From: Escherichia fergusonii ATCC 35469
GTDB lineage: Bacteria; Pseudomonadota; Gammaproteobacteria; Enterobacterales; Enterobacteriaceae
Reading direction: 5' to 3'
DNA: 64,000 nucleotides
Assembly (NCBI RefSeq): GCF_000026225.1
Contig: NC_011740.1
Span: 4,161,576-4,225,575, forward strand
This document shows positions 33,391 to 49,987 of this stretch, piece after piece. A program made the translations under genes and the position numbers. The notes below the pieces were generated by a model, which did not search any database, was not told the DNA's origin, and saw nothing but the letters and a program-made list of their open reading frames with translations. Each line of letters starts with the position of its first letter. The stretch's first letter is position 1.

Positions 33391-34119
33391 TTACCGAAGA
33401 GAATATTTGAGCTGTTTAAATTTGCTGCAGAGTGTGTTTTTTATGCTGAAACCTGGAACCCAGTGGAGAGCTGTGTTCCAGGGACGAGGTGAACCGTGAA
33501 AACATACAATTTTTGCATCCGATGGCAATTCTCCGTTTGCTTTACCATCGTGTAAGTCAGGATTAAAGCCTATCATTTTAGGCGTCGCTATATTCGCTTT
33601 GTAACTGATAATTTGTCCTGGAAAAATATCCTGCCATCTTTCAGCGTCATGACATACTCTGCCGATAAATCCCTGATCCCCATGATATGGCGGCTTTCTG
33701 GTTGAATTTATTTCAGTTTCAGGCGATCTCATAAACTCTTCCCAGACAAGTTTTTTGGCGTCCGCAGGAATGAACATTATTCCAGTCGCAGGAGCAGCAT
33801 TGGAACCATGCTGCGAGAAGTCGTTCAGTAATGTTACTTTTTTCATTTTAGTAAACTGTGTAATATCACCGACGATTACAGTATCAATATCAATATAAAG
33901 TATATCTTCATTCCCGATAACAGGATGTTCGGGATTAAATAGCTCTAATTTTGCCCACCATCCTGGCCAATTATACAGTAATGGAGTGGTTTGAACCCCT
34001 TTGATTTCTGAAGCATCCGTCATGCAAATGGAATTATACCCATCCAGCTGCTGGTGAAGCCATTGTGCATGTTTAATAGTGAAATCCTTACTTTGTCTGA
34101 GAACTGAGACAATAAACAT
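33391..34119 (-). CDS. Hypothetical DxD-motif protein, possible GT-A-like glycosyltransferase; AT-rich
   Basis: 242 aa. ILYIDIDTVIVGD gives a DxD after a hydrophobic beta-strand. Last gene after the tail-fiber module. Low GC. Confidence 0.4.
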   Translation of the reverse strand: MFIVSVLRQSKDFTIKHAQWLHQQLDGYNSICMTDASEIKGVQTTPLLYNWPGWWAKLELFNPEHPVIGNEDILYIDIDTVIVGDITQFTKMKKVTLLNDFSQHGSNAAPATGIMFIPADAKKLVWEEFMRSPETEINSTRKPPYHGDQGFIGRVCHDAERWQDIFPGQIISYKANIATPKMIGFNPDLHDGKANGELPSDAKIVCFHGSPRPWNTALHWVPGFSIKNTLCSKFKQLKYSLR

Positions 34120-34332
34120 GTAATTTCCCTGTAGCGATTAGCAAAATATATAAGTAGTGAACTATATTTGATGTAATTTACAATGCAATAGTTATTGTAT
34201 TTAAATTCTTCTATATTCACTCAGTGGATGGTTAATATGGAAATATAATTACTGTGAATATTTATAAGCATGTGCTTTGTTTGTGATGGAATATACAGCC
34301 TGATTAAAGCCGGGCTTGAAGCCCGGCGTAGT

Positions 34333-34788
34333 TTATGGTTGATATTGCCAACTGTTAACTAAAGCGTACAAGTGGTTTGGGGAATAGCGCCAACTTTCTT
34401 TTAATTGCAGAAATTCGGCACAAAATTCGCTACAAAACAGGCGATCGCGCTGTTCTTTATTGCCGGTGATAATTCCTAAGGCTCCACGCCAGTCGTATTT
34501 TTTGCCATCATGTTTACGGAAAAAAGCTTCTACATCCTGAAGGCTGACCTGGAGCGGCAGCATATCCCACTTGTCTGGCGGTAAAGGCATTATCTTTCCA
34601 CGAACGCCGCGATCGCGCAGAGAGGCGGAGTAACAAAGGTAACTCTTTTCTCCATGTGCTACGGCTAATTCACAGTGGGAATAACTGCCGCGAGTGATTT
34701 TGCGTGTAAGCCAGTCAGCCAGTCTCGCAATAACCCGGTGCTCTGTTCGCCCTTTATAGCAAGCGAGCCAGACTGTAGTTTTACTCAT
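34333..34788 (-). CDS. YiiX/YaeF-like permuted papain-fold (NlpC/P60 superfamily, C92-like) protein
   Basis: 151 aa. GKKYDW...LFCSEFC and SHCELAV match the YiiX catalytic Cys/His context by recall. ATGA overlap with the upstream tfa gene. Confidence 0.5.
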   Translation of the reverse strand: MSKTTVWLACYKGRTEHRVIARLADWLTRKITRGSYSHCELAVAHGEKSYLCYSASLRDRGVRGKIMPLPPDKWDMLPLQVSLQDVEAFFRKHDGKKYDWRGALGIITGNKEQRDRLFCSEFCAEFLQLKESWRYSPNHLYALVNSWQYQP

Positions 34789-35492
34789 GGTTGCCAGCCT
34801 GTTGAATAATCGTAGTCGAGTACCGACTGAATATCGTCCAGAGCTTCCACCGCCGCGATATGGCGTTGGGCGTTGGCAAACAAGCGTATATCGTGATCCA
34901 TTGTGACGGATTCAAACTGGGCAGCGATTTCGTTGGTTAACTCAGTCAGACCATTATTTTTAGTTTTCCACATTAAACCTGGCGGAATTTTTTTCTCCGC
35001 TCCCATTTTTGTGAGTGAGAGTTGTTGGATGCGGCTGCTTGTATCACTGTGGAAGTAATTGTCGTTGATGATGATGTAGTCGGTAGTGATGGAGTCGCGC
35101 AATGTTTTGATTTCGGCACATTTCGCCTGTTTAGCATCATCAATTGATGGCTGCCATTTTTCGCCATCCCAACGCTCAAAAGTACTGGTAGGGGAAATGA
35201 TGGTGACAGTTTCAGGCAATTGACCCAATTTATTAATAATAATCTGGCTGCCATCAACTTTGTTATAAACAGTTTGGCCTCGATGATCTTCAATAAGTTC
35301 CCATTTATTAATTGACCATATAGAAGTAAAACCTGCAATTTTTTGTGGTGGTGGTGTTAATGTGCAGTAATTCGGTAGTCCAGTGTTTGGTGCTATATAT
35401 ACATTGGACTCACCAATAAATTCTTGTGTGTCTGGTGAAAAATTAAAAACAGATAAAATTTGTGCGTTATCGGAAAAAGTAAAAGTATTCAT
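34785..35492 (-). CDS. Phage tail fiber assembly protein (Tfa / gpG / Mu U-like)
   Basis: 235 aa. Tfa family by recall. Overlaps the tail fiber stop. Confidence 0.75.
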
Positions 35493-37069
35493 GCAAGCCT
35501 CACAATATAATTGAATGCAATGTTTTTAACAGTATTTTCTGTATTGCCAGTGTTATTGATGATAATTGAGTGATTATGTGTACCTAACACAATATTATGT
35601 GTATGACTTCCCAGTGCGATTGTATGTGCATGGGCGCCAATCGTAATACTATGATAATGACTACCAGCAGACTCAGTAGGTTCTCTGTAGTTCTCATCTG
35701 AATTGGGGCTGTTCCATAAAGACGGTCCATCTTTACCTTCTGCACCATCAGTTGGTATTCGGTGTGTATGTTCTCCAGATGTGCTTGTATTTCTACTTCC
35801 ATGATTAAATGAAGCTGTAGTTTTTGTTCCTAAGTCCGTAGAGGTAGATGTTATTGTCCCTAAATTGGTACTAGAAATACTGCCCGTATGGTTATGTGAT
35901 TTAACTCCATCCAGTTCAGTAGATAATATAGCGCGCCCACTGGATGGTTTTCCTTTAATTATCCATCCGCGCATATCAGGAATAACGCCAGATGGATATG
36001 CAATTGCCAGTTTGGGATAGGAGGTTTTATTAAATGTCTGACCAGTCATCAGAGCGTAGCCTGAAGGTACAGAATCAGATGGCCAGGGTATAGGCATCCC
36101 TACAGGACAGCTTTCCGCAGCAATAGCCTTATCCATCGCTGCCTTAACCGCGTTCGGCGTTGCAGCTTCCGTCGTACTGGTGCTGTTGGTCGCATTATTA
36201 AGTTTCACGACCCCTTTTTGTGTCAGCGTACCGTCGGGGATACCTGTTATTTGCCCCCAGGCATGGGTATGGCTGGACGGTGCCGCAGCAATAGCCTTGT
36301 CCATCGCTGCTTTAACAGCACTTGGCGTTGCAGCTTCCGTTGTACTGGTGCTATTTGTTGTGTTGTTAAGTTTAACGACTCCTTTCTGCGTCAGTGTACC
36401 ATCAGGGATACCAGTAATCTGACTCCAGGCATGATTATGACTGGTGGCAGCTTTGCTATTTGCCAGGTCATATGCCGTTTTTACCGCTTTTGGCGTGGCC
36501 GCTTTGGTTTCATCATCGCTATTAGTCGCATTACTCAGCTGCGTAAAACCTTTTTGTGTCAGCGTCGCATCAGGATGATTTCGTGATTGCTGATGTGTTT
36601 TCAACGCGTCATCGACATATTCCCTGGTTGCCACAACGACTGAAGGGTCGATCAAAAGCGTCACCGCATCTGCATTGGTGACTTCCATGACCGCGCGTAT
36701 AACGATTTGCTTACTGGCCCCCGCAGGTAATCGTGGCTTATAGGTTTCAGGGATTTTTCCGATAGCGACCAGCGTGCCGTCGGTATCCAGTAACCCAACT
36801 TCGCGTACATACCAGCCTCCGACTTGTTCGGGAATAATCGCTTCCGCGATAACCCAGGCCGGATTATCTGGCGCAATTTTTAACGTATTGAGCTGACCAC
36901 GCCAGACCTCATGGACTACTTTAGTCTGACTTTCTGTCGGTTCGATATATTTACCATTACCGTCGCCAACTACCATAGTTTGCAGACGGATCTGTTTTTG
37001 CTCCGTCAATGCAGAGGCAATTTTGGCTTTGCCTGCAGTAGTTAATATTGTAAAAAATTCACTTGCCAT
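35489..37069 (-). CDS. Phage tail fiber protein (P2 gpH / Mu S / lambda Stf-like) with tandem repeats and a His-rich C-terminus
   Basis: About 526 aa from [21 protein letters not shown] (SD GGAGGA; the track ORF starts 41 codons earlier, inside gpI). Two 168-bp tandem repeats. C-terminal HxH-rich tip. Confidence 0.8.
36117..36452. repeat. 2 x 168-bp tandem repeat inside the tail-fiber gene, plus a degenerate third unit to ~36620
   Basis: GCAGCAATAGCCTT[A/G]TCCATCGCTGC... recurs at 36117 and 36285. Encodes a ~56-aa repeat ([24 protein letters not shown]...[18 protein letters not shown]). Confidence 0.85.
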
Positions 37070-37803
37070 TATTCCTCCGGATATACAGACATAATTTCGG
37101 TGCTCCAGTATCCTGTGCCGACCTTCATCGGTTGGGATTGTGTAAGGCGATCGGGTTGATAAGGTAGTAGTTGGATATATTCCTCCACACAATAACCCGT
37201 CGCTAAAAATATTCCTGATGACTGGCTGAGGCTTTCTGCAACAGGAGGCAATACTGTAATGACTTCCCCTCCTTGCATGGCGCTGCCAATAACTGGTATT
37301 GGGCTTCGATTAATAAGCCAAATAACAATGCTTTCCAGCTTTGAACGAACATTTTTATATTCATGAATTAATGTGATAAGTGCATTGAATTCATCTTCAT
37401 TTAATCCTTTTTCCTCTAGTGTAATATTTACCTTAAAAAAATAAGCCCTTCCCCCATATTCAAACCATTCTGAAATAGTTCCGGGTAAGGAAAGTATTTC
37501 CAGCACCCGCCGTACCGCCCAAATTGTTCCTTTATATTTATGCAGTTCAATGGCTTGTTTAATTAACTCGCGCTTCTCCCGCTCATCGGTGGTAAATAAC
37601 CAACCTTCCAGCCCCTGAACGTGAAATTGTTCTGCAAGGGCTGGTAATGCCGAAGCATCAACCAGGTCGACCAGATAAACCATCAACGCCGTCAGATCGA
37701 GTTGGGCAAAACGCTCGGCGGCGATGTTTGCCAGAATCGAAAAACGCTCATCGCTGGCAAGCGGCGGCGGTGGCAGCAATTTATCCATCGCTGACTCCGG
37801 CAA
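37069..37803 (-). CDS. Baseplate protein (P2 gpI / Mu gp48-like)
   Basis: 244 aa. Its stop overlaps the tail-fiber start (TAATG). Position follows the J-like gene. Confidence 0.65.
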
Positions 37804-38896
37804 TCGTGACGTCTATTGCAGTGCATTCCGCCCATTCATGCGCCTGCAAAATACGTTTTGTAGGCATATTCAGCGCAACGTCATAGACGCCATCGACCTG
37901 TAACACTTTGATTATCTGGTTTGGCACAATGTCCTGCCCCAGATGTTTCTGCCGCTGTTGCGTCCAGAGGCTAATCGCTTTACGCGCCGCAGCCAGCGTT
38001 GTCTCCTGATCGGCGGTGGTAAACAGCGTTAGCTGAGCACGGATCTCATACGGCACTCGAAGAGCGCATTTCGCACTCACTTTGTCGGTCAGCGGACGTT
38101 TTTTCTCCTTGCTAACCTCCTGTTCGATTTGCGCGAGCAGTTCTGTTCCCGGCAGTCCGTTCAGGGTTAGCGGGTAGATCTCCACGCAGCCTTCTGGCAA
38201 TCCCTCGTCCGGCCCCAGTACTGCAACGTCAATAATCGACTGGCTAACAGAAAGCGTATGAAAGCGGTATGCGCCATAGCTGCCCGCATTACTAAAGCTT
38301 TCTGGTGCCAGTTGGATACGCTGGCGCAATGCGTCATCGCTCTCCTCACCGCAGCCGCCCGTTGACGCAGTCAGGTTAGTTACGTTGATGTCATAATGAC
38401 CCATCCTGTCGACCAGTGCGCTAATTTGTGCAGGCTGCCAGCCGTTGCCCTGTTCACCTGCTGCGAGGCTGGTGGCAGGAACGGCGATATGCAAACTCCT
38501 GGCCGGAAGCAGAACATCTTCATCGGTGGCGAACATCACGCTATCAGAGGCACTGGCCCGCGTCCCCTGGGGAATCAGGATATTGCTGGTATACGCACTG
38601 ACGACCGAAAACTGCAACGTCGTTTTTGCAGGCTGCGCAGGCAAACGGTGAACGCCCACCAACTCCCCTAAATAATCCAGCATTGGCGCGCGGGAATACG
38701 CGACCAGGTTTTGTTTCGCCGCTTCCTGAATGGCGATGCGTACAAGGTTTTCACGATAGGCAAACAGGTCGATGAGCAACCGCTCAGCCTGTGCCGGATA
38801 GAGTTTTTTACCACTGGCATCTTCGTATTGCGCAATCATCTCACTGGTAATTTGCGCAGGATCGCGGTCAATAAAATTGGGTTCGGCTATCGCCAT
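37781..38896 (-). CDS. Baseplate wedge protein (P2 gpJ / Mu gp47-like)
   Basis: 371 aa. Baseplate J family by recall. Confidence 0.7.
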   Translation of the reverse strand: MAIAEPNFIDRDPAQITSEMIAQYEDASGKKLYPAQAERLLIDLFAYRENLVRIAIQEAAKQNLVAYSRAPMLDYLGELVGVHRLPAQPAKTTLQFSVVSAYTSNILIPQGTRASASDSVMFATDEDVLLPARSLHIAVPATSLAAGEQGNGWQPAQISALVDRMGHYDINVTNLTASTGGCGEESDDALRQRIQLAPESFSNAGSYGAYRFHTLSVSQSIIDVAVLGPDEGLPEGCVEIYPLTLNGLPGTELLAQIEQEVSKEKKRPLTDKVSAKCALRVPYEIRAQLTLFTTADQETTLAAARKAISLWTQQRQKHLGQDIVPNQIIKVLQVDGVYDVALNMPTKRILQAHEWAECTAIDVTIAGVSDG

Positions 38897-39246
38897 AACA
38901 CCTCCGTTGAGTTGATAACGCCGTCAGCGGCGCGCCATTGCACACGTAACGTCAGATGTTCGCCGTCGATTACTGGTGTCAGCTTCAGCAACCGACAGCG
39001 CGGTTCCCACTGGCGGATGGCTTCCACCGACTCCCGTACCACATGCGGGATTGCCCGCTCGATGGGGTAATCGATGTAGTGCCACAAGTTGCTGCCAAAC
39101 AGCGGTCTGTGGGGATCACTGCCGCGCGGTGTACGCAGAATGATGTGTATTGCCTGGTGAATATCATCCAGCCCGCAGACGTATTCTTCAGGCCGCTGCA
39201 AGGCCGGTTGCCAGTGCAGCGTTGAGGGTCGTGTTTTTGTGTTCAT
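38887..39246 (-). CDS. Baseplate protein (gp25 / GPW-like)
   Basis: 119 aa. GPW/gp25 family by recall. Confidence 0.7.
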   Translation of the reverse strand: MNTKTRPSTLHWQPALQRPEEYVCGLDDIHQAIHIILRTPRGSDPHRPLFGSNLWHYIDYPIERAIPHVVRESVEAIRQWEPRCRLLKLTPVIDGEHLTLRVQWRAADGVINSTEVLWR

Positions 39247-39344
39247 GAGGGTATTTTCGCCCTGAACGGGCTGTGGCGATATTAAAGCGATTTAGAAAAC
39301 TGATTGATTAAAAAGAGAAAACCCGCCATCAGGCGGGTTAAACG

Positions 39345-40046
39345 TCAGTGTGTATGGTGGTTGGAGTTGCCACCGCTGTCCTGCAATGCGCCGCTGGCCT
39401 GAACGTTGCCGATCACGTTGACATTGCCAGTTATCGTGGCGGCGTTACCGATGCCTCCACTTCCTGCCATCCCGCCAAGCCAGGTGAGTTTTTTCATTAC
39501 CGTGACGTTGCCAGTAAAGGTGCTCATGGGCGCATCTACCGTCACTGCTGCCGCTTTAACATCGACCTTAGTGGCGTCGATGCTGACATCGGTCGCTTTA
39601 ACATCGACAGTATCGGAAGTCACGATGACCTGTTGGGCTTTAATCTCAACGTTGGGTGATGTCAGGCGGGTACTGTCGATAACCTCAATCACGATTTTCT
39701 CGATACCGCCGTTAATCGTCAGCTGGTGCGTGCTGCGGTCATATTCAAACGCTGCGCCATCAGAAAACTGGACGTAACGTTTATCGCGCGAGGCCACAGG
39801 CGCGGTGTCAACCGTAGAATAAACTGCGCCCAGCACCACGCCATCTTCACCGTTATTGTCCAGCAGAACTTCCACTTGCTCGCCCATATCCGGTAGCCAG
39901 TAGTCTTTATTGTCCTGGGAATTGCGTTGAAGTACCGCAAGCCAGTTGCTCTTCAGATTGTCACACTCCGGGAGCGTGACCCGCACCCGAACGCTGGTTT
40001 CGTCAATATCGATGATAATCCCCGTTTGCCGGGTTACTCCTTTCAT
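39345..40046 (-). CDS. Baseplate central spike (P2 gpV / Mu gp45-like)
   Basis: 233 aa. N-terminal OB-fold region, then a beta-helical repeat (VDVKATDVSIDATKVDVKAAAVTVDAP) and a C-terminal apex. Confidence 0.7.
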   Translation of the reverse strand: MKGVTRQTGIIIDIDETSVRVRVTLPECDNLKSNWLAVLQRNSQDNKDYWLPDMGEQVEVLLDNNGEDGVVLGAVYSTVDTAPVASRDKRYVQFSDGAAFEYDRSTHQLTINGGIEKIVIEVIDSTRLTSPNVEIKAQQVIVTSDTVDVKATDVSIDATKVDVKAAAVTVDAPMSTFTGNVTVMKKLTWLGGMAGSGGIGNAATITGNVNVIGNVQASGALQDSGGNSNHHTH

Positions 40047-40055
40047 ATTTCCTCC

Positions 40056-41096
40056 TTACTGGCTGGTCGCTGGCCCGCGCGACACGTCGATTTCAGTGGT
40101 ATAGCCGCTGCGCACAAAACTGTGAGTAGATTTATCAATTAGCCATTGACCGGAAAGCACGCCAAAATCGGTTAGCTCGATTTTATTGCCCGCCGTCAGT
40201 TCCGGGCAGCCCATCATTGTGAGCGTTCCGGTTTGCTGATATTCGTTGTGGCTGTCGAGTGCAGCGTTGGCTTTTGCCTGTGCTGCGCCAACGTCCGTCG
40301 CCCGACTGTTCAGTTTTAGCGTGTCGGCACTGGTGCCGACTCCACGGGCAGACGGTTTTTGCTGGCTGTCGTGGGTGTAGATAACCAGTTCTTTTTTCTT
40401 ACTATTTTGATGCTGTACGGTGGCGTTTTTGTAGATACGGTTAATGGTATCTTTGAAGGTGAAATGCGAAACGTCTTTGCGGTCGATCGTTTTTACCGGT
40501 GCCAGGCAGCGCAGCGTGGGTAAATGTGAAAAAATCAGCTCTTTTGTCGTCACTTTTACGGCATAACCATATTCACTGGCCAGACGTTTGAGAAATCCGA
40601 CATCGGTTTCACCATACTGCGTTACCCGGTCGATGGTGAGCGGCTCGATTTTGCCCACCAGTTTCAGACCGTGCGTTTGGGCGATACGGCTGGCGATAGC
40701 CGAAAGCGTCGTTTCTTCAAAGCCCTGGCTGTTACGGGTGCGCAGCGCCTGATTGACGGAAGTGGCGATGCCATCAATATTTACCGTGGAAGGTGGCGCT
40801 GAAATATCAATTTTATCAATAATATATTGACCACAATCGAGCAGTTTTTCCCCCTGATAACCCATATGCAGCGCCAGCGTATCGCCTTTGCCGGGATACC
40901 ACTCTTTTATCCAGCGTCCATCGGTGTCATCCAGTGTAATCGCGATGGTATCCGACTCGTTTTTAATACTGTCCTGGTAACTGATGCTGGTGACATAAGG
41001 CGTGATGTCATAAGTGATATCTTTATGCCCATACCAGAGGGTAAAAATGGGCGCGAGCGTGGCAAAGACGCCGCCAGTTACGCTTATCTCAGCCAT
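40056..41096 (-). CDS. Baseplate hub / late control protein (P2 gpD / Mu gpP-like)
   Basis: 346 aa. gpD family by recall. Confidence 0.7.
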   Translation of the reverse strand: MAEISVTGGVFATLAPIFTLWYGHKDITYDITPYVTSISYQDSIKNESDTIAITLDDTDGRWIKEWYPGKGDTLALHMGYQGEKLLDCGQYIIDKIDISAPPSTVNIDGIATSVNQALRTRNSQGFEETTLSAIASRIAQTHGLKLVGKIEPLTIDRVTQYGETDVGFLKRLASEYGYAVKVTTKELIFSHLPTLRCLAPVKTIDRKDVSHFTFKDTINRIYKNATVQHQNSKKKELVIYTHDSQQKPSARGVGTSADTLKLNSRATDVGAAQAKANAALDSHNEYQQTGTLTMMGCPELTAGNKIELTDFGVLSGQWLIDKSTHSFVRSGYTTEIDVSRGPATSQ

Positions 41097-41296
41097 GGTG
41101 GGAGCTCCGATACGGTTTTGTTGACGGAAATGACCGGAATGATGAGCTGAATACCGGAAGGTAGTACCGGGTAAATGGCGACATGTGGATTGGCGGCGAT
41201 AATGCGTTCATAAGCCAGCGCATCGCCATAGTAATGCCATGCCAGATTATCCCAGCGTTCGCCGTCGGTGGTGATATGTTCAAGGTATCGCATCAC
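41084..41296 (-). CDS. Tail protein X (LysM-like)
   Basis: 70 aa. P2 gpX-like by recall. Confidence 0.6.
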   Translation of the reverse strand: MMRYLEHITTDGERWDNLAWHYYGDALAYERIIAANPHVAIYPVLPSGIQLIIPVISVNKTVSELPPWLR

Positions 41297-42246
41297 CAGC
41301 TCCTCGTAATGGTTGCGGCAGCAAACTGACTCACTGCTGGAGTGGTTCGTTGTACCGTTGTTCGTGCCTGATCAACCAACGTTGCTGCTTTATCAAACGT
41401 CGTTTCGGCGATGTCGCTGGTAATGTCATCGAAAAGCGCCTGAGCATGGTCAACCAGCGTACTGGCGTCATTGGCGCAGTCCCGGATACCTGGCATGTTA
41501 CCCAGTAAAGCTTTAATCTGCGCCGACAACGCTTTTGGGAGTCCTGCCAGCGTTTGCAGATCCATCGGCTGTATAAACAGGGTTTCGATGGCGTCGATTG
41601 TCTTTTTCAACGACGTAATTATCTTTTCACACTTTTCTTTTAACGCTTTGGCCTCTTTAATCAGTGCTTTCACTTTTGCCACTGTTTTTTTAATATCTTC
41701 AATGGATTGCGCCAGTTCATCGAGCATCTCTTTGGCTTTGCGCATACCTTCTTCAATGGCGTTCAATATCTGATCTAACCAGGACTCCTCCTTATTCGGA
41801 AAATCGCTCGCCTTTTCCTCGATATTAGGCTCCTGGGTGGTAATTGCCGGGGGCAGCAGTGGGTTTTTCGGATCGCCGGTATACTCCTGGAGCGACATTG
41901 TTCCACTTTGGGCAATCACATTGCCCCAGGGATCGGTGTGCTGGTGAGTGGCGGTTAACTCTGTAATTACAAACCAGCCGCGATAATCTCCGTTGCCAAA
42001 CACCAGCGCCATTGCTTTGTGGGCGAGCATGGCTTCACGCAGTCGATTCAGCTCTGTTGTGGGTTGGCAAAACTGGCTGTGCAGGGAAAATTCCAGCGCC
42101 AGCATATCCAGCTTATCGCCAATAAACTGTACGCCAGGTTTGCCTTCAATACGGGCATGTGTGGCGTAATCCACGCCCATTGTGCTCTTAAAGCCATCCC
42201 AGAACGTGACAACTTTAAATTCAATCTCTCCTAAAACGGCATACAT
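41293..42246 (-). CDS. Tail protein (P2 gpU / Mu gpN-like) with a C-terminal coiled-coil extension
   Basis: 317 aa. The N-terminal ~150 aa are gpU-like. Follows the tape-measure gene. Confidence 0.55.
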   Translation of the reverse strand: MYAVLGEIEFKVVTFWDGFKSTMGVDYATHARIEGKPGVQFIGDKLDMLALEFSLHSQFCQPTTELNRLREAMLAHKAMALVFGNGDYRGWFVITELTATHQHTDPWGNVIAQSGTMSLQEYTGDPKNPLLPPAITTQEPNIEEKASDFPNKEESWLDQILNAIEEGMRKAKEMLDELAQSIEDIKKTVAKVKALIKEAKALKEKCEKIITSLKKTIDAIETLFIQPMDLQTLAGLPKALSAQIKALLGNMPGIRDCANDASTLVDHAQALFDDITSDIAETTFDKAATLVDQARTTVQRTTPAVSQFAAATITRSW

Positions 42247-44621
42247 CAGGCATACCCCCGGCGCTGCTGCTGCGCCATTACATCGTTAATCATTCTTTCC
42301 AGTTCGCGTTTACTCATCGTCAACACGTTCTGAATCTCTTTAGTGGTGTTTTGTCCGTTACCCTGCACGGTAATTTGTGGCGAAAAATTCACCTGAACTT
42401 TTCCTGAGGAACGGGAAGGTAGCGTCGCCGCTTTGGTTACGGATTTACCAGGTAAAGAGGCCGATGCTTGTTTGGCGGCTGTATTTTTTGCCGCTGATGC
42501 CGATGGTAGCGTTGTCGTTTTACTGGATGGCGCGAGTTGTTTCCCCACTGGAGGCGTTAAAATCGCACCGGCAACGCCTGGAACAACGGTCGTGGAGGAG
42601 ACGGATGCGGTATTACTCGTGCTTGTAACAGCCGTAGCCGATCCTTCTGTACTAATACCCATCGTGGTTTTTAGCCAGTCCGGTAAGGCGTTTTTGATCT
42701 GGTCAATAATGCCTTTCAGAGCGGGGAAGGCATTTATTATGCCGTCAACCAGACTGCCCAGAAGATTGCTGCCGAACTCGCTAAAACTTGCAGGCATCTC
42801 GACACCAAACCAATTCATCACACTGGAAAAGGCGCTATAGAACAAAGCCAGCGGCGACCAGTCGAGAATCAACCGGCAAATCCCTGCAATACCGCCGTCA
42901 AAGGCCGTGGTGATACGTTGCCAGATGGTCGAAAAGAACCTGGAGATAGGCTCCCAGTTGCGATAAATCAGATAAGCAGCACCCGCAATTGCGGTGATGA
43001 CCAGGCCAATGGGATTCATCAATAAAACCCTACCCAACCAGAAGACGGTCTGACCTACCTGTTTCAGTGCGCCAATCAGGCCACGACCAAGCAGTTGCAT
43101 TAGCCATTTTGCGCCGCCACCCAATGACTTAACCGCTGATAGCATCTTACTTGCCCCGCCTGTGAGCGCCAGACTTGCCTTGACTTTCAGGAAGATATCG
43201 ACCAGACGAATAAACGGCGAGGTGATGAGGTTCGCGCCCAGCTTTAAAACATTCAGCGCACCGTTAAACAGCCAAATCGCCCCGACGATTTTCGCGATGT
43301 TTTGCACCAGTGTCGGGTGCTCACGTAGCCAGGTGCTGAACTGACGAATAACCGGCGTAAGGCTTTGTGCCAGCTCGCCAATCAGCGGCATTAATTGCAA
43401 GCCAATGCTGAGCCATAAATCATTTAACGCCAGCTGTAACGCTTTAGTCTGTTCAATGGGCGAGGCCATTTGCGCAGAAAAGTCGGCATCAATCAGATTC
43501 TTGCTGGTGGCTTGCATGGCAGAGGTTTTTAACTGGCGATATTCCTCCATATTCGCCAGCATAGGTGCCAGGAATTCCACCGTTTGCGCATCGCCGAACA
43601 TTTCGCCCAGATTAAATTGCGTCACCATCGATTGCAGCGCATTGCTGCGAGCAGATAAATCTTCAATCTGCATAGTTCGTTTGAAGGTGTCGAGGATCGC
43701 CGGATTCATCTTCTCAAGCTGCATTTGTACGATATGAGTCATGGCTTCGCTAACACCCATACCGTTTTGCTGATGTTCAAGCAGAGAGCCTTGCAGATCG
43801 ACGCCCTGGCTGGCGAACCAGTTATCGGTCTTTTTCGAAAAGGTGGTTTGCAGAAAGTGGTCGAAATTCTCCGCCGCCGCACTGGCGCTGGCTCCGTTTT
43901 TCATGGCGATCTGCATGGCGGCAGTCAGTTCAGCCATACCTTCCAGACCCTGAGCGCCGGTTTTACCTGCAAATTTGTCTATCCACAGCGTTTGCTCGGC
44001 AACGGCAGGCCCACCGCTTTTGCTAATGCCGTACATCATGTTTTGCGCGACGTGGAAATTTTCTGGCGCAATATTCAGTCGATCATGGGTTGCGAGCGCG
44101 GCATTCGCCCATGTTTCAGCACTTTCGCGCGTGGCGGTGGCAGCTTTGGCGATCTCCGGCATATAACGGTTGAGATCCTGTATCGACGACAAATTGCCTT
44201 CGATCAGCGTTTGGGCTGCGTTCTGTAAGGTGGTCTGATGCTGGTTAAAATCCATGCTCCAGTCGCGCAGATTAAGGCTGAGCGTCTCGCGAGTTGTATC
44301 ATTCATCCCACCTTTGGTCGCCATATTGACCATGTTGTCCTGGAACTCATACGGCAACTTCCAGTCGGGGGCTTCAACATTGAATACTTTGCTAAATTGC
44401 CCGGCAAATGTGTGGGTTTTCTCCATCAGATTAGCGCGGCTGCGGCTATTTTCCTCCAGGCGGAGAGCGGAATCGGCAAGCCGCTGCGTTAGTTTGATAA
44501 CTGTCGCTTGCTGAGTAGAGAGAGCTAACAATGTTCTGGCGTTGAGTGAGCCGTAACGGGCTATTGCCTGCGTCAACGTCTCATTACGCGCCTGAAGCTG
44601 GGTAATAATATCGTTGGCCAA
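42246..44621 (-). CDS. Tail tape measure protein
   Basis: 791 aa. Ala/Gly-rich with a central hydrophobic segment. Position between the chaperone and U-like genes. Confidence 0.8.
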   Translation of the reverse strand: MANDIITQLQARNETLTQAIARYGSLNARTLLALSTQQATVIKLTQRLADSALRLEENSRSRANLMEKTHTFAGQFSKVFNVEAPDWKLPYEFQDNMVNMATKGGMNDTTRETLSLNLRDWSMDFNQHQTTLQNAAQTLIEGNLSSIQDLNRYMPEIAKAATATRESAETWANAALATHDRLNIAPENFHVAQNMMYGISKSGGPAVAEQTLWIDKFAGKTGAQGLEGMAELTAAMQIAMKNGASASAAAENFDHFLQTTFSKKTDNWFASQGVDLQGSLLEHQQNGMGVSEAMTHIVQMQLEKMNPAILDTFKRTMQIEDLSARSNALQSMVTQFNLGEMFGDAQTVEFLAPMLANMEEYRQLKTSAMQATSKNLIDADFSAQMASPIEQTKALQLALNDLWLSIGLQLMPLIGELAQSLTPVIRQFSTWLREHPTLVQNIAKIVGAIWLFNGALNVLKLGANLITSPFIRLVDIFLKVKASLALTGGASKMLSAVKSLGGGAKWLMQLLGRGLIGALKQVGQTVFWLGRVLLMNPIGLVITAIAGAAYLIYRNWEPISRFFSTIWQRITTAFDGGIAGICRLILDWSPLALFYSAFSSVMNWFGVEMPASFSEFGSNLLGSLVDGIINAFPALKGIIDQIKNALPDWLKTTMGISTEGSATAVTSTSNTASVSSTTVVPGVAGAILTPPVGKQLAPSSKTTTLPSASAAKNTAAKQASASLPGKSVTKAATLPSRSSGKVQVNFSPQITVQGNGQNTTKEIQNVLTMSKRELERMINDVMAQQQRRGYA

Positions 44622-44809
44622 AATTGTTTCTCTTATAGATTGGTGATGGCCCGCTGGTTAGTTTTCTGAAAAATGGGCTGGGAAGAAATAAACCTGGCGG
44701 GCTTTGAAGAACTCGCAGACATCAGGTCTGCGAGTCATATTCGATCTTTATTTGAGCGCTGGCTTCATCCAGCCAGTTGCTAAAGTCATCTATGGTGAGC
44801 GCGTCTATC

Positions 44810-45127
44810 TCACTGGGCGGAAAGCGAAACCATCTCGCCAGTAACGCCATCGCTTGCCATAACAGTGGCGGATTCTGTAGCCACGCTAAGCATGGATTGA
44901 AATCGTTTCTGCAATGCCTGGTAATCCAGCAAATCCATTTCAGCTAAATCTTCTGGCACCAGTCCGGTCATTGCCGCCATTAGCGGTTCATCCCATTCTT
45001 CTGGTTTTTCGCTGATCCGGCGCGCGTTGCGCATATCTTTTACTTTCAGGCGACGTAATTGCAGCGTGTCGATATTATTTCCTGCTGCCGACGTAAATGG
45101 AAACTGCAAGATATAATGTTCTTTCAT
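44810..45127 (-). CDS. Tail assembly chaperone (gpE-like); probable frameshift extension (E') into the 44622..44809 gap
   Basis: 105 aa. A ~190-bp unannotated gap before the tape-measure gene is typical of the programmed -1 frameshift product. Confidence 0.6.
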   Translation of the reverse strand: MKEHYILQFPFTSAAGNNIDTLQLRRLKVKDMRNARRISEKPEEWDEPLMAAMTGLVPEDLAEMDLLDYQALQKRFQSMLSVATESATVMASDGVTGEMVSLSAQ

Positions 45128-45177
45128 TTTGTGTCCTTATTTATTTTGCAAAGTTCGGGGCCGTAGCCCCGAATAAC

Positions 45178-45702
45178 TTAGCCACCGATGTTATTGCGAT
45201 AGGTACTTAATTGATCCACACCATTAACCCGGAAAATATTGGCCATATAATCAAGTTCAAGCAGCGTTTCACCATCAACTACTTGTTTAATATAAGTGCA
45301 ACCAAAGGCGCTGCTGAATTCCGGGTTTTCATTCTGTTTAAATGTGCCCAGTGGATTCTTTTTAAACATCACGGTTAAATGTGTCACTAACGCTAATTGA
45401 TTCGCTTTCCCCTGGGAGTTATAGCAATCAATACTGGAGCGGCACTGTAATGCCACCGCCTGCCACGGGTTTGCCGTTTTACGCATGACGTCCTGATAAA
45501 AGGAGTTCCATTTAATTTCGCCCTCCAGTTTATCGAAACCTGCCGGGAGTTCGATTTTGCCGACCATACCCAGTGCCTTATGCTCTTGCATAATTAAACT
45601 GACATCCGGCAATTTAATTTCGGTTGCACGACCTAAAAGGTTATTACCATCGAGATAAATATTGGCGTTGGTAATACGGTTAATTTGAATTTTTCCAGCC
45701 AT
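45178..45702 (-). CDS. Contractile tail tube protein (P2 gpFII / Mu gpM-like)
   Basis: 174 aa, immediately downstream of the sheath gene. Confidence 0.75.
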   Translation of the reverse strand: MAGKIQINRITNANIYLDGNNLLGRATEIKLPDVSLIMQEHKALGMVGKIELPAGFDKLEGEIKWNSFYQDVMRKTANPWQAVALQCRSSIDCYNSQGKANQLALVTHLTVMFKKNPLGTFKQNENPEFSSAFGCTYIKQVVDGETLLELDYMANIFRVNGVDQLSTYRNNIGG

Positions 45703-47132
45703 TAGCTATTGCTCTCCAGAGAGACTAAATATTCAGAAGTAATTTCAGTTTCAAACGTCAGACGTTCCAGCGGCGGTGGCGGGGTGAATTTATAGCTCAG
45801 CAATAAATGCCCGGCGCTGAGTTCGGTCGGTGAATTTCGCGCCGGATCGTACCAGCACTCAAAGCCAAGCAGTGCGCCGTCGGCAATCAGCTTACGGCCC
45901 CAGGTATTTACCGATTCGGTCAGGGCATCAATCAGCGCCTGATTAATCGGCATATCAATATACTGCTGACTGAAATAACGGATTGACTCATTAATTACAT
46001 CGCCTGTCCGGCGGGCGTTTTCAAAGTTACGCATATGGGTCACGGTAGGCCATGCCGCTGTGCGGTTGCCCCACAAGCGCAGACCAGAGCCGTAACTATT
46101 GAAAATAGTGGTAATGCCGTTTTCGTTGAGCTGATTCACTTCGCTTTGAGGATCATCAATCATTGCGGAAAGCGAACGTTCAATACCGGTAATACCCTGA
46201 ATTTCCTGGTTTGAGTTGCTCCACCAGAAACCTTTTTCGAGGTCTACTTTGGCACGTAGCCCGGCAGCGCGCGAAGAGAGCGGTTCGAGAACTTCCTGGT
46301 TAGTGATGCCATCGTAAACTTTGACGTGTGGGTAACATAAACGCGCACGATCAGAGCTGGTGTTGAAGTTGATAGCCCCTTGCGAACCGCGTCCTGCCAA
46401 TACCTGCTGGAATGTCGTCCCAATCGGGGCATCAATGTAGGTAATCGCACCAAGTTTTTCCGCTTGTGCAATCAGCTCGGTAGTTACTGATTTTTGCGTA
46501 CAGAACACGGGAGCAAGCAGGATTTTGGCGTAGAAACCATACAGGTTATAGGTGTCCTGTAGCAGTTTCATCCCCGTGCGATCGCCTGCGGTATTAACGG
46601 CACCGATAATATCGGCTGCGGTGACCTTTGTAGGGTCGCACCAGGAATAATAGGCGCAAACTTTCGCACCAGGAGGAATGTCGGCTCCTGTACGGGTAAT
46701 TATGCCTGTTTGTTCATCTACGCTAAATGCTGCGGTGTTATAGGTTGATGAATTTGATGAAGAGGGCTTTAGAACCACGTTACGCACATTGCGGTGAGCG
46801 AGTTTCGCCTGGTTGTTAGCGTCAAAAGTGATACTCTCATTGCTGATGTTGGAGCCATGTTTTGCCGGATCCAGCACGTTAATCACCACCACCGTACCGG
46901 CACCGTGGTCATAAATCGCCTTCAGTGCCTGCGGGATCGTAAAGTTAGCCTGAGTCGAACCAAACTGCGCAGCATCGCTTTCAGAAAGGCATAATGTTGG
47001 TTTATTTACCGGACCACAGGGGGCCGTACCGATTAAAGCGATGACGGCGGATTTTACCGCTTTAACCGGACGCGGGCCGGTTTCAATTTCAATGGTTTCT
47101 ACACCGTGCAGATAATTAGCTGCCATGTACAA
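45702..47132 (-). CDS. Contractile tail sheath protein (P2 gpFI / Mu gpL-like)
   Basis: 476 aa. Sheath family by recall. Confidence 0.8.
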   Translation of the reverse strand: MYMAANYLHGVETIEIETGPRPVKAVKSAVIALIGTAPCGPVNKPTLCLSESDAAQFGSTQANFTIPQALKAIYDHGAGTVVVINVLDPAKHGSNISNESITFDANNQAKLAHRNVRNVVLKPSSSNSSTYNTAAFSVDEQTGIITRTGADIPPGAKVCAYYSWCDPTKVTAADIIGAVNTAGDRTGMKLLQDTYNLYGFYAKILLAPVFCTQKSVTTELIAQAEKLGAITYIDAPIGTTFQQVLAGRGSQGAINFNTSSDRARLCYPHVKVYDGITNQEVLEPLSSRAAGLRAKVDLEKGFWWSNSNQEIQGITGIERSLSAMIDDPQSEVNQLNENGITTIFNSYGSGLRLWGNRTAAWPTVTHMRNFENARRTGDVINESIRYFSQQYIDMPINQALIDALTESVNTWGRKLIADGALLGFECWYDPARNSPTELSAGHLLLSYKFTPPPPLERLTFETEITSEYLVSLESNS

Positions 47133-47313
47133 TTTCCTCTCCGTTATTTTGTTCTTCCTGAGTGATGACAGGTGTCAGATGATTGCGGGCAATCATGGTC
47201 ATGACCCACTCGTTGTCTTCTGGCAGATCAATTTCACTGTTCGGCCACAATAAGATTTCTTGTCCGTCGGCAAGGGTGACGCCGCTTGCCGGGCCGTTGT
47301 AGATGTATTTCAT
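47116..47313 (-). CDS. Small Mu-like virion/tail protein (DUF2635-like)
   Basis: 65 aa, overlapping neighbours in an operon. Confidence 0.4.
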   Translation of the reverse strand: MKYIYNGPASGVTLADGQEILLWPNSEIDLPEDNEWVMTMIARNHLTPVITQEEQNNGEEIVHGS

Positions 47314-47765
47314 TCAGTTTCCTCGTAATTAACTTCAGTAAGCAGGGTAAGGTCCGTGCTTTCCCGTTTCGCGATAAACAGCGAGCTGGTCGCCATTTCC
47401 AGGATGTAGCGGCAGAAACCACCGCTCTCGCCTGCATTGATTTCTTTTTCAAGCCAAAGAAGACGCTCGCAATCAGGAAGCTGGATCCCCCCCAGTGCGC
47501 TGCGTATGCGGTCCAGTGCGTTTAACGCGTCACAATTTTTGCCAACAATAACGGTGGCAGTTAAACGGAGCGTTTGCTGTTGCACGAGAGCATCACTGCT
47601 TTCAGACATGGCAAATAGAGAACCGCTATAATTAATAATCACTGTAACTTGCTGCGTCTGCGGAATATATTTATGGGCATCAACCGATGAAATAGATACA
47701 TCCATTTCGGGATTCTGTTCACATAATCTGGTCACAACAGAATTCATTACTGATAAAATTTCCAT
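47310..47765 (-). CDS. Mu-like tail completion / neck protein (DUF1834-like)
   Basis: 151 aa, immediately upstream of the sheath gene. Confidence 0.45.
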   Translation of the reverse strand: MEILSVMNSVVTRLCEQNPEMDVSISSVDAHKYIPQTQQVTVIINYSGSLFAMSESSDALVQQQTLRLTATVIVGKNCDALNALDRIRSALGGIQLPDCERLLWLEKEINAGESGGFCRYILEMATSSLFIAKRESTDLTLLTEVNYEETE

Positions 47766-47882
47766 ATAGGGTATCCCTTAATTATCGCTGATTCGTTAAC
47801 GCTCACTTCGTTATCGTTGAAATGTATTCTGACGTAGTGAAGGTGAAGGATCTTTTAATCTGCTTTAGAGAAAAAATTGAAT

Positions 47883-48197
47883 TTAATAGCTACCGCGTTG
47901 TAATAGCTCTATTTTGCTATATAAGGCATCCAGCTTTGCTTCTAATACTGCCTGGCCACGAAGATAATCTTCTCTGCGGACATAATGCAGCGGAAGCTCG
48001 GCACGAAATTCGAGAAATTCTCTTTCCAGTTTCGACCAGTTTGTTTCTGATTCCCGGCGCGCGTTTTCCAGAGATTCAAAACGCTCATTAAGTCTTTTTT
48101 CAATTTGCGCTAACAGCAATTTTCCGGCAGCAAACATTAATCCAACGAAGGAAAGCATAAGGGAGATCACTTCCCAAAAATCGATACTGAGTTTCAT
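47883..48197 (-). CDS. Spanin-like lysis protein (N-terminal TM plus coiled coil)
   Basis: 104 aa. TM helix ISLMLSFVGLMFAAGKLLL, then a charged coiled coil. Confidence 0.45.
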   Translation of the reverse strand: MKLSIDFWEVISLMLSFVGLMFAAGKLLLAQIEKRLNERFESLENARRESETNWSKLEREFLEFRAELPLHYVRREDYLRGQAVLEAKLDALYSKIELLQRGSY

Positions 48198-48209
48198 CGG
48201 CCCCTCTGA

Positions 48210-48815
48210 TTAGTGAAGACAGCTTGCCTGTCCCCAGAGTAAATAGCGGGCGGCGTGTTGATAGAGAATCATCTTTGGATAGCGACGATTTTCTCGCCAG
48301 TTCGTGGCGCTGCGCCCGGCGTTGACTTGCTCAACATGACCAAACCAGAGAGTGGCATCTAGCCCTTTGGATACAGCCAGTTTTTTATCCCGATTAACCC
48401 ATCCCTGACCGCCGTTATAGGCGCTTAGGGTAAACGCCATACGCTGACAATCATTTTTCGCAGAGATGTTTTTCCACAAATACTGGTCATATTGCACCAG
48501 CGCGCGAATCGCCCAGGTTGGGTTATACGGTTTGTTTTCACGCAACTGCGGATACAACTGGCTTACCCATGTCGCTGTAGCAGGCATGAATTGCGCCATA
48601 CCTTGTGCGCCAACGGGGGAACGTACCATTGGCTGCCAGGCGGACTCCTGGTGTAATTGCCCGGCAAAGTCGGCCACTGGGGCATTCAGTCCCCAGACTT
48701 CTCGAGCGGTACGAATTAGTTCGTTTCGCCATGCCAGAGAGGCTCTCGGCGGTTCAGAGGCGTTGAGTGGGAAAAGAACGAAAATAATCATAGACGCGAT
48801 ATATTTCAGCCACAT
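48210..48815 (-). CDS. Lytic transglycosylase (SLT-domain endolysin) with a signal peptide / signal-anchor-release sequence
   Basis: About 201 aa from MWLKYIASMIIFVLFPL. SLT core ES...GAQGMAQFMP...AYNGG. Confidence 0.75.
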   Translation of the reverse strand: MWLKYIASMIIFVLFPLNASEPPRASLAWRNELIRTAREVWGLNAPVADFAGQLHQESAWQPMVRSPVGAQGMAQFMPATATWVSQLYPQLRENKPYNPTWAIRALVQYDQYLWKNISAKNDCQRMAFTLSAYNGGQGWVNRDKKLAVSKGLDATLWFGHVEQVNAGRSATNWRENRRYPKMILYQHAARYLLWGQASCLH

Positions 48816-48817
48816 CA

Positions 48818-49105
48818 CTATAGCCCTAACGCGACGGAAAGGCAGACGGCAGCAACGATGATAGCCCGGCGAATCATTGCCGCCGCGCAGCAACGCGGTT
48901 CCTTCCAGGGGCAAAAAGAGTCAGGCCGTGCCCAGGGGAACAAACTGCGATCGAGCCAGTATCCCAGCACCGCGGAAAGCGAAACCAGGCTTAGTTTATA
49001 AATGACGACCGGGATTTGTGCTGAAGAGGTCCAGCCGATCACGACAAACAGCGCGACGGAAGCGACCAGCCAGCCGGAAAGCCGGGGAAATGTGATTTTT
49101 TTCAT
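48818..49105 (-). CDS. Holin-like membrane protein, first gene of the lysis/tail operon
   Basis: 95 aa with 2-3 TM segments. SD AGGAGA. Abuts the transglycosylase start. Confidence 0.5.
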   Translation of the reverse strand: MKKITFPRLSGWLVASVALFVVIGWTSSAQIPVVIYKLSLVSLSAVLGYWLDRSLFPWARPDSFCPWKEPRCCAAAMIRRAIIVAAVCLSVALGL

Positions 49106-49401
49106 ACGATATCTCCTGATAAATGAGCGTTTAGTGTCGTCAGAACCCGCCAGTGAAGAATGAAAAAAGCTTTAATAAATAAGTTTAAAAAATAGATTCT
49201 CTATAAATGAACATGCCCGCTAATAAATCCACCCGTCAATAAAAGAGCAAAAGGTGACCTGGCGAACAAGTGCATCATTATGCAGGGGAAAGATGATGGT
49301 GGATCGTAGGAATATTCGATAGTTATTTGATTTTTAAAGTTTGTTTAAGAAAGTCAGCGACTGTGAGGGAAACGATCTTTTTACACTACAAGTAAAAATA
49401 A

Positions 49402-49421
49402 TACTGTATGTGTATACAGTA
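49402..49421. promoter_or_regulatory. LexA (SOS) box
   Basis: TACTGTATGTGTATACAGTA has the CTGT-N8-ACAG half-sites and an AT-rich centre, 18/20 to consensus TACTGTATATATATACAGTA. It lies in the divergent region between the tail operon and the Mor-like gene. A TTGACA -35-like hexamer is at 49443. Confidence 0.75.
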
Positions 49422-49642
49422 TCGTGTAAAATGATACACCTGTTGACAAGAAACATAACGCAAACAATATATCTATTTCATGAATTTATGGCGTTCATTA
49501 ATATTAAAAATTTATATTTTTGTTAATTGTTTATTTGTTTGTTGAATGTATTGAGTAGCAGTAATGACAACTGCTTAGCGTATATCCGTGGTTTTACACG
49601 CATCGGGTCTTATTCAGGATGCAAGATATATGGAGATGAAAA

Positions 49643-49987
49643 ATGATACGAAAATCAAAAGAGATGGCCCGGACACCGGAGATCATTAACGACCTGGCTT
49701 TTCATGCATCGCAAGTTCTGATTGAAAGCATCAATCTCGACAGTTCATCGGCAGAAAATGTGGGCTTTGCCATTGCCGACCGAATGATGCGTAACTGGGG
49801 CGGACAAAGCATTTATTTCCCTAAGGGGATCTCCGGACGAGCATCGGAGCGTGACTACCAAATCTATAGCGAGTGCGATGGGCGCAACTACGCCGAATTA
49901 GCGAAGAAATATAATCTGACGCTGCAATGGATTTATAAGATTGTGAAGCGGGTGCACGCAGAAAAACAGCAGCAACGTCGGATGTAA
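49643..49987 (+). CDS. Mor/C-family (Mu middle/late operon) transcriptional activator
   Basis: 114 aa with C-terminal HTH NYAELAKKYNLTLQWIYKIVKRV. Mor family by recall. SD GGAGA. Confidence 0.65.
   Translation: MIRKSKEMARTPEIINDLAFHASQVLIESINLDSSSAENVGFAIADRMMRNWGGQSIYFPKGISGRASERDYQIYSECDGRNYAELAKKYNLTLQWIYKIVKRVHAEKQQQRRM

Follow-up and report, generated by a model that had tools for sequence, protein, structure and literature searches.

A probable SOS-inducible R-tailocin of Mu type beside lysC in Escherichia fergusonii

The R-type pyocins of Pseudomonas aeruginosa, which derive from P2, are head-less contractile bacteriocins accompanied by a holin and a lytic enzyme, and their induction is RecA-dependent. 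Carotovoricin (Ctv) of Pectobacterium, termed a 'Mu-type tailocin', is under SOS/LexA control and lacks a dedicated repressor (PMC13566846). A third element, Def4 of Salmonella (STM4196-STM4219; 'BTP6' in D23580), has been catalogued as a 'prophage remnant' (PMC5322425; PMC3591323). Here we analyse a head-less contractile-tail island located between yjbD and lysC in a 64-kb stretch of the genome of Escherichia fergusonii ATCC 35469 (NC_011740.1, positions 4,161,576 to 4,225,575), which we call the window and to which all coordinates refer. We consider it probable that this island is a functional, SOS-inducible, head-less R-tailocin of Mu type that has been domesticated from a myophage of the BcepMu/ECA41 type. 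Mu-type tailocins as a kind are already represented by Ctv and the Salmonella ortholog of the island has long been catalogued as Def4, so that the novelty initially claimed for it has to be narrowed; in the literature searched we found however no report in which the enteric island is taken for a tailocin or its LexA-Mor wiring is remarked on, and no functional study of Def4, of a lysC/yjbD-linked tailocin or of tailocins in Escherichia other than E. coli.

Open reading frames (ORFs) of the island were scanned with Pfam, PHROG and NCBIfam (Table 1). By ORF layout and family matches the lysis and tail genes form a minus-strand operon (34333-49105) that reads from 49105 down to 34333, and they provide the complete set of components of an R-type tailocin, namely tail terminator, sheath, tube, chaperone, tape measure, hub, spike, baseplate wedges, fiber and fiber chaperone. 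Each component of the tail that the original prediction had listed is matched by Pfam or PHROG, except that its plural 'neck/completion proteins' were not borne out. A linked lysis cassette is present as well: holin and SLT endolysin, the latter with a hydrophobic signal or anchor at its N-terminus, are as had been proposed, whereas 'spanin-like' is no more than a tentative label for the 104-amino-acid product; its gene is kept downstream of the SLT gene in all relatives, complete phages included. The tail terminator Gp37 matches the six-chain PDB entry 2GJV of the Salmonella ortholog STM4215 (2e-52). Its structure as predicted from a shallow alignment (predicted local distance difference test score, pLDDT, 60) retrieved 2GJV and tail terminators and points to a fold resembling that of the Mu terminator; a single-sequence AlphaFold model was unusable (pLDDT 38.5), and a protein homologue search returned only close relatives (79-95%). 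The 65-amino-acid protein encoded next occupies a position that we take to be that of Mu gp38. The fiber consists of a collar-fiber N-terminus, fiber repeats, a Collar domain and a tip with the HxH repeats HYH, HAH, HTH and HNH, in agreement with the His-tipped fiber originally described.

Table 1. Features of the lysC-linked tail island (window positions)
Feature	Position	Strand	Basis or remark
Mor/C-family transcription activator, 114 aa	49643-49987	+	Pfam PF08765 Mor E=4e-38; PHROG late transcriptional activator
LexA operator TACTGTATGTGTATACAGTA	49402-49421		18/20 to consensus, CTGT and ACAG arms both perfect
Spacer block 2, ATTTTTTAAAsTTATTTATTAAAGC (coding strand)	49169-49193	-	one variable base, six aligned islands
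Holin, 95 aa	48818-49105	-	Pfam PF13272 Holin_2-3 E=2e-27; PHROG holin
SLT-domain lytic transglycosylase endolysin, 201 aa	48210-48815	-	Pfam PF01464 SLT; PHROG endolysin
104-aa membrane-anchored coiled-coil protein (putative spanin-like)	47883-48197	-	N-terminal transmembrane segment and coiled coil
117-bp junction, head-module position of complete relatives	47766-47882	-	synteny comparison
Tail terminator/collar, Gp37 family, 151 aa	47310-47765	-	Pfam PF09646
65-aa protein, terminator-sheath interval	47116-47313	-	PHROG 895; present in nearly all related loci
Tail sheath, 474 aa	45702-47126	-	Pfam Phage_sheath_1 and Phage_sheath_1C
Tail tube, 174 aa	45178-45702	-	Pfam Phage_tube E=4e-56
gpE-type tail assembly chaperone	44810-45127	-	Pfam Phage_TAC_7
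E' extension of gpE, +1/-2 frame	~44719-44940	-	Pfam Phage_P2_GpE E=6e-4, under curated cut-off
Tape measure protein, 791 aa	42246-44621	-	Pfam PhageMin_Tail
gpU-domain protein, 317 aa	41293-42246	-	Pfam Phage_P2_GpU
gpX	41084-41293	-	Pfam Phage_tail_X
gpD hub	40056-41096	-	Pfam Phage_GPD
gpV spike	39345-40046	-	Pfam Phage_base_V; NCBIfam phage_P2_V
Terminator-like hairpin after V	39310-39344	-	sequence
W (gp25-like baseplate wedge)	38887-39246	-	Pfam GPW_gp25
J (baseplate wedge)	37781-38896	-	Pfam Baseplate_J
I (baseplate wedge)	37069-37788	-	Pfam Tail_P2_I
Tail fiber, 526 aa	35489-37069	-	Pfam Phage_tail_fib, Phage_fiber_2, Collar
Tail fiber assembly protein Tfa (Caudo_TAP and DUF4376)	34785-35492	-	Pfam and PHROG
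Conserved 151-aa protein, last operon gene	34333-34788	-	ortholog of STM4198; terminator-like hairpin follows
242-aa glycosyltransferase-like cargo gene (DxD motif), separate unit closing island	33391-34119	-	PHROG 1962 'glycosyltransferase' E=9e-99

The order of these genes, sheath-tube-chaperone-tape measure-baseplate-fiber, is that of the Mu lineage, and together with the Mor/C-family activator, encoded divergently from the operon, and the Mu-like terminator it constitutes a late region of Mu type, as had been predicted. The R-type pyocins differ in this respect: their baseplate and fiber genes precede sheath and tube, their control by PrtR/PrtN contrasts with what would here be LexA and Mor, and they stem from a different phage ancestor. 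The P2/R-pyocin layout, in which V-W-J-I-H-G lie upstream of FI-FII-E-T-U-D, is not what is seen in the island, although individual tail proteins nonetheless match P2-named Pfam families, the nearest solved sheath structure is the pyocin R2 sheath PA0622 (E=3e-45) and the pyocin collar has the same fold as Gp37. The 188-bp 'gap' between gpE and the tape measure gene proved to be an open frame, the product of which (..LLARWFRFPPSEID..WLDEA..QIK..) is a weak match to the P2 gpE family. This E' frame is open and conserved across about 60 matched related loci, in nearly all of them at +1/-2 relative to gpE, and no classic -1 slippery heptamer was found in gpE, the extension lying in the -2/+1 frame instead. 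For the corresponding genes of Mu, a frameshift of the uncommon -2 type was reportedly described by Xu, Hendrix and Duda in 2004, and the gpE/E' arrangement thus fits the Mu lineage. Marks of extracellular contractile injection systems (eCIS; PVC/Afp), i.e. an AAA+ ATPase, effector or toxin cargo and an Afp-type cap/tail, are absent from the scanned island ORFs, and a phage lysis cassette and a fiber are present. The published 'ST131 tailocin' is a different element, a complete P2-like prophage.

The island is distinguished from phages of its lineage by what lies, or does not lie, between lysis genes and tail terminator. Related loci were collected by a protein-pattern scan with the sheath, one genome per species, which yielded 80 loci that were grouped by tblastn synteny; as the scan relied on exact peptide patterns and returned neither the host species nor Salmonella, it is no argument for absence from other genera. 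Complete Mu-like prophages of the BcepMu/ECA41 type (Photorhabdus, Xenorhabdus, Pectobacterium, Pantoea, Burkholderia) carry the same lysis cassette and tail module, with sheaths 71-76% identical to that of the window, a Mor-family activator and a chaperone extension in the -2 frame. According to published descriptions such prophages possess early regions with transposase and repressor. In addition they hold a head module of about 8.5 kb between the lysis genes and gp37: the distance from the 104-amino-acid gene to gp37 is about 8.3-8.7 kb in complete prophages of Photorhabdus, Xenorhabdus, Pantoea, Erwinia, Buttiauxella, Pectobacterium, Brenneria, Dickeya and Burkholderia as compared to about 0.5 kb by synteny in the window, where the junction itself measures 117 bp. 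In a Photorhabdus locus (L029; L numbers are our locus handles) this interval encodes Mu Gp27, the large terminase TerL, Mu portal, Mu F, Mu Gp36 and a probable major capsid protein (weak Pfam match, E=5e-4), which identifies the headed relatives as Mu-like. When nine head-module proteins of a complete relative were searched against the whole 64 kb with tblastn, the best hit was a chance match (E = 0.003), and the Pfam scan of the remaining island ORFs returned no transposase, integrase or repressor. Thus, as originally claimed for the island, head, packaging, replication, transposition and lysogeny genes are missing, and neither transposase A/B nor the c repressor nor a head module of the Mu prophage type is found in the 64 kb. 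As the lysis genes are retained up to the junction and the tail genes resume with the terminator directly after it, the junction reads as a precise deletion of the head module. A whole-island megablast search against a phage database matched just Salmonella contigs and short fragments and recovered no complete phage.

Among the described bacteriocins Ctv is the closest relative. Head-less Pectobacterium loci carry a TolC-like gene directly upstream of the holin gene, and since a TolC-like gene is the published upstream boundary of the Ctv cluster (PMC13195805) we identify the Pectobacterium locus L047 as that cluster. It has the same gene order as the island (holin, SLT, membrane protein, Gp37, 65-amino-acid protein, sheath, tube, gpE/E', tape measure, U to I, fibers), and the proteins are 56-76% identical for most core structural genes (sheath 76%, tube 76%, D 59%, W 66%), dropping to 29-41% for tape measure, gpU, gpI and gp37. 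Both lack a dedicated linked repressor, and in Ctv this goes along with control by DNA damage and the SOS response (PMC13566846). There are however clear differences. Ctv lies between tolC_2 and ybiB and the island at lysC; Ctv has extra ORFs between SLT and gp37, no linked mor within 10 kb upstream and no LexA box within a few hundred bp upstream of its holin gene; and a fiber invertase, reported in about half of the Ctv clusters, is not seen in the window. As Ctv also falls into a separate clade (see below), the lysC island is not a member of the carotovoricin locus, common head-less descent is disfavoured, and an independent loss of the head is suggested. Ctv is experimentally proven as a tailocin, and the island is a putative one.

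Def4, by contrast, is its ortholog. The annotation of S. Infantis maps the island to STM4198-STM4219, that is to the Def4 remnant of S. Typhimurium, which occupies the same position between yjbD and lysC with the same head-less order. Mor (91% identity), the LexA box (19/20), holin, SLT and Gp37 (2GJV) are all shared, the amino acid identities ranging from 59 to 96% gene by gene. Def4 differs in carrying gtrABC between V and W (L002, 11131-13966), where the window has a hairpin, and other genes on the yjbD side; the window has slipin, RlaP, zeta-toxin and glycosyltransferase-like cargo genes instead.

The second line of evidence comes from the control region. A near-consensus LexA box had been noticed between mor and the holin gene, and it is indeed present there, conforming to the operator pattern of the LexA regulon (CTGT-N8-ACAG / TACTGTATATATATACAGTA) at a predicted promoter: it overlaps a candidate holin-ward promoter (TTTACA-16-TACAGT, minus strand), and on the mor-ward strand an invariant TAAAAT follows just downstream of it. 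CTGT-N8-ACAG occurs twice in the 64 kb as compared to 0.64 expected and is by itself too common to be significant; the weight of the box therefore rests on its conservation. It scores 17-19/20 throughout the lysC-linked islands examined (those of the window, of three contigs of the same lineage, of E. coli, two E. albertii, Salmonella, two Superficieibacter and Phytobacter) and is absent from about 77 other related loci (scores below 15). Across six aligned lysC-linked islands the mor-holin spacer has a mean column identity of 62%, and three blocks stand out from it. The first is the LexA box with an invariant flank (CATTTTACAC-nATACTGTAT..ATACAGT), the second lies about 65-85 bp upstream of the holin start and the third is the ribosome-binding region. 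The second block is a candidate for a Mor-dependent late promoter element, and carotovoricin-type clusters as well as head-less clusters of Brenneria, Lonsdalea and Lelliottia have a related motif (TTAAAC..TTTAAAATC) upstream of the holin gene. These clusters lack a LexA-like box nearby; in the carotovoricin-type ones none was found upstream of the holin gene down to 13/20.

Which of the two promoters would then be controlled by LexA? In RNA sequencing data of S. Typhimurium 14028 the gene STM14_5073 is up 4.1-fold with nalidixic acid (PMC8072944, Dataset S1), and by its size (348 bp), its plus-strand orientation and its position 21 kb from yjbD we identify this gene as the mor ortholog. Only these expression data favour the mor promoter over the holin promoter as the LexA target. 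We propose that DNA damage, by inactivating LexA, would free the operator at the back-to-back promoters of the mor-holin spacer so that Mor is made, and that Mor would in turn activate the late promoter or promoters of the leftward operon, possibly through the second spacer block. The operon products would self-assemble into DNA-free contractile particles, holin and SLT endolysin would lyse the producer and release them, and the particles would bind to surface receptors of related strains, probably lipopolysaccharide (LPS), through the variable fiber tip, contract, puncture the envelope and kill. The tailocin that had been suggested for this locus is thus supported at the level of sequence, whereas the formation of particles, killing and a response of the tail genes to SOS are what we would expect of it.

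Selection on the island is in keeping with a function. The tail core is found in 196 of 5426 complete E. coli genomes (~3.6%), always chromosomal and always 95-96.4% identical, and a head-less island beside lysC is present also in E. albertii, Salmonella, two Superficieibacter species and Phytobacter massiliensis; the identical tape measure protein is encoded on 14 public contigs bearing the same island. The core genes flanking the island in the window are about 95% identical to E. coli, only lysC being at 85%, and the island has diverged from its E. coli counterpart to the same extent as these neighbours. In the comparison with Salmonella none of the lysis and tail genes is truncated or interrupted by a stop, the ratios of nonsynonymous to synonymous substitution rates (dN/dS) are 0.05-0.24 at a dS of about 0.6-1.7, comparable to that of flanking lysC (1.67) and yjbD (1.14), and the corresponding ratio of uncorrected differences (pN/pS) against Superficieibacter and Phytobacter is 0.06-0.5. 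Intact reading frames under purifying selection across genera, as judged from these comparisons, are unlike a decaying remnant.

Nevertheless, a number of observations weigh against a functional SOS-inducible tailocin. In every host the formation of particles and killing by the lysC-linked island are predictions, and the island is missing from 96% of the complete E. coli genomes. Insertion sequences (ISEc53 or ISKox3) interrupt it in some carriers, IAI39 and CE10 included, gtrABC has inserted into the Salmonella island, and in one E. albertii strain (CP045690.1; L090, 8585-9141) gpE seems to be disrupted, leaving a 42-amino-acid ORF only; a sister strain (L091) has an intact gpE of 105 amino acids, and the disruption appears to be recent decay in one carrier. 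No ORF with a lipobox, embedded or overlapping, was found that could be an o-spanin. None of the lysis and tail genes of S. Typhimurium (STM14_5045-5072) is in the list of genes induced at least 2-fold by nalidixic acid, and the locus is not among the LexA-box genes listed in the same study (PMC8072944). The box itself stands 220-300 bp from the start codons of both mor and the holin gene, and by sequence either promoter fits. Finally, in a simple neighbour-joining tree of concatenated sheath, tube and D Salmonella groups with Superficieibacter and not with Escherichia, which is incongruent with host phylogeny; strict vertical descent is hence not established as against locus-targeted exchange.

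Several of these points would be accounted for if the island were an inert prophage remnant, whose tail genes drift towards decay after loss of the head and early regions and no longer give rise to a functional particle. The sole description of the Salmonella ortholog is as a remnant (PMC5322425; PMC3591323), and the loss of the island from most E. coli, the IS and gtr insertions, the lack of induction of the S. Typhimurium tail genes by nalidixic acid and the missing o-spanin are all compatible with it. It would not readily explain, however, why about 19 ORFs have all remained intact in Escherichia, Salmonella, Superficieibacter and Phytobacter with dN/dS far below 1 at saturated dS, why even the out-of-frame E' extension is still conserved, why the LexA box and the promoter-proximal blocks have been kept within an otherwise divergent spacer, and why the head was deleted cleanly at a functional boundary, between lysis genes and tail terminator. 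We therefore regard an inert remnant as unlikely.

Could the island serve its host other than as a bacteriocin? It might mediate an altruistic SOS lysis that releases DNA, vesicles or toxins, its tails might complement or arm other mobile elements, or selection might act on its cargo, in which case the tail genes would hitch-hike. Among the genes of the island are some that modify LPS (gtrABC in Salmonella, the 242-amino-acid gene in the window), holin and SLT genes are close to the LexA/Mor control region, and Pectobacterium atrosepticum and P. betavasculorum keep only the first 5-7 carotovoricin genes, which in P. atrosepticum are expressed, as public transcriptomes suggest (PMC13195805). 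Yet purifying selection acts on every structural tail gene and not on lysis and cargo genes alone, and the scanned ORFs include neither effector or toxin cargo nor an eCIS-type AAA+ ATPase. Moreover, the module that is swapped and diversified is the receptor-binding fiber tip, as expected if recognition of targets matters. The segment comprising fiber tip, Tfa and the 151-amino-acid protein is the most variable part of the island: it is 84-87% identical to the best E. coli copies as compared to 96% elsewhere in the island, just 147 of the 196 E. coli carriers have it in full length, and in Superficieibacter and Phytobacter homology of the fiber is confined to its N-terminal half, Tfa and the 151-amino-acid gene having been replaced. 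Carotovoricin likewise combines a conserved core with a variable tail-fiber locus (PMC13195805), and by this analogy the pattern is what would be expected under diversifying pressure on target recognition. A functional role other than that of a bacteriocin seems to us quite improbable on these grounds. That the island is the tail half of a complete Mu-like prophage, with head and early genes just outside it or elsewhere in the genome, of which our inspection covered 64 kb, can hardly be upheld, given that the window is free of head homologs, that chromosomal genes bound the island on both sides, that E. coli LWY24, two E. albertii, S. Infantis, Superficieibacter, Phytobacter and a contig of its own lineage show the same head-less layout at the same site, that the tail core is 95-96% identical in the 196 E. 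coli copies and that complete relatives hold the head module contiguous with, and inside, this very gene order.

The LPS-modifying genes deserve mention in their own right. Salmonella has gtrABC and the window a glycosyltransferase-like gene with a DxD motif, for which no match was found in the islands of E. coli LWY24 and Salmonella. It is a speculation that such cargo confers self-immunity to the island's own particles.

If the island is a functional tailocin, how did it arise? In the neighbour-joining tree the lysC-linked islands form a clade of their own together with a head-less Lelliottia cluster; carotovoricin and Samsonia form another one, to which the complete prophages are nearer, and head-less Brenneria and Lonsdalea clusters nest among complete prophages. 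This topology suggests that the head was lost at the lysis/terminator junction on seemingly at least four occasions. A far-reaching account, which may well prove wrong but which we think worth putting forward, is that of an anciently fixed enteric tailocin at lysC, domesticated independently and perhaps functional since before the split of Escherichia and Salmonella, in which a LexA operator wired to Mor has replaced the phage repressor and which is one outcome of at least four parallel head deletions. Further head-less derivatives with lysis genes adjoining gp37 were seen in Brenneria (L009, L015), Lonsdalea (L042/L044/L045) and Lelliottia (L006); in the head-less loci of Chromobacterium (L069-L073/L077/L081) mor and gp37 are direct neighbours in divergent orientation, and the lysis genes are missing from the space between them. 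These loci of the four genera are possible tailocins not yet characterised.

Should the island be functional, Escherichia (about 3.6% of E. coli, E. albertii and cryptic lineages) and Salmonella, the model strains LT2 and 14028 included, would possess a native R-type tailocin, which in Salmonella has so far been filed as a dead remnant under the name Def4. A self-contained circuit of LexA, Mor and late operon would be added to the known modes of tailocin control, and an enteric model amenable to genetics would become available for Mu-type tailocins, the exchangeable HxH fiber module of which could be used for retargeting. The parallel losses would represent a clean case of repeated, convergent domestication of a phage into a weapon by deletion of the same head module. 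In addition, the island may be relevant to how strains compete in the gut and to the question why genes for LPS modification ride along.

Some smaller features of the island and its surroundings are added here. Terminator-like hairpins are located downstream of V, the tube gene and the 151-amino-acid gene. The proteins of 65, 104, 151 and 242 amino acids had no match in NCBIfam, PADLOC and relaxed Pfam searches. The 151-amino-acid protein is strongly conserved (dN/dS 0.035 vs E. coli); its PHROG family label 'enoyl-CoA hydratase-like' looks unreliable, and its Cys and His residues (SHCE and CSEFC stretches) suggest that it might be a small thiol enzyme.

The placement of the island between yjbD and lysC was right as to the interval, but the tail cluster does not fill it: genes for a slipin (SPFH) and an RlaP nucleotidyltransferase (31437-33361) and for a zeta-toxin (50159-51088) lie there too and flank the cluster. 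In E. coli without the island, for instance KW21, these three genes lie side by side in the yjbD-lysC interval, and in many E. coli matches the zeta-toxin and nucleotidyltransferase genes adjoin lysC, with up to ~1434 genomes covering most of the lysC-side query. Searches of PADLOC, NCBIfam and relaxed Pfam did not match the three genes to a defence system; possibly they are an uncharacterised toxin or defence islet. Two GC-rich terminator hairpins (ACGCCGGG-N6-CCCGGCG; 33349-33370 and 50114-50135) bracket the tail island, and the empty site of KW21 has a single copy. An interpretation of this repeat as the 5-bp target duplication of Mu was rejected because it is too long.

On the yjbD side (27104-30907) the 3' part of rluF and yjbD are duplicated, 27527-28259 and 30119-30851 aligning to one and the same E. 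coli segment, and the copies flank an insertion of about 1.9 kb and low GC content (34-37%) with a GT4-family glycosyltransferase gene (28318-29460, minus strand). On the other side lysC shares only 85% identity with its E. coli counterpart, as compared to about 95% for its neighbours. Its leader (52583-52874) is short, the lysC-pgi spacer measuring 292 bp vs 524 bp in E. coli, and no lysine riboswitch was detected in it with Rfam, either at the gathering threshold or at E<=1; the same short leader is found in S. Infantis. The window begins with a ribosomal RNA operon (1-4782) comprising 16S, cut at the window start, tRNA-Glu, 23S and 5S.

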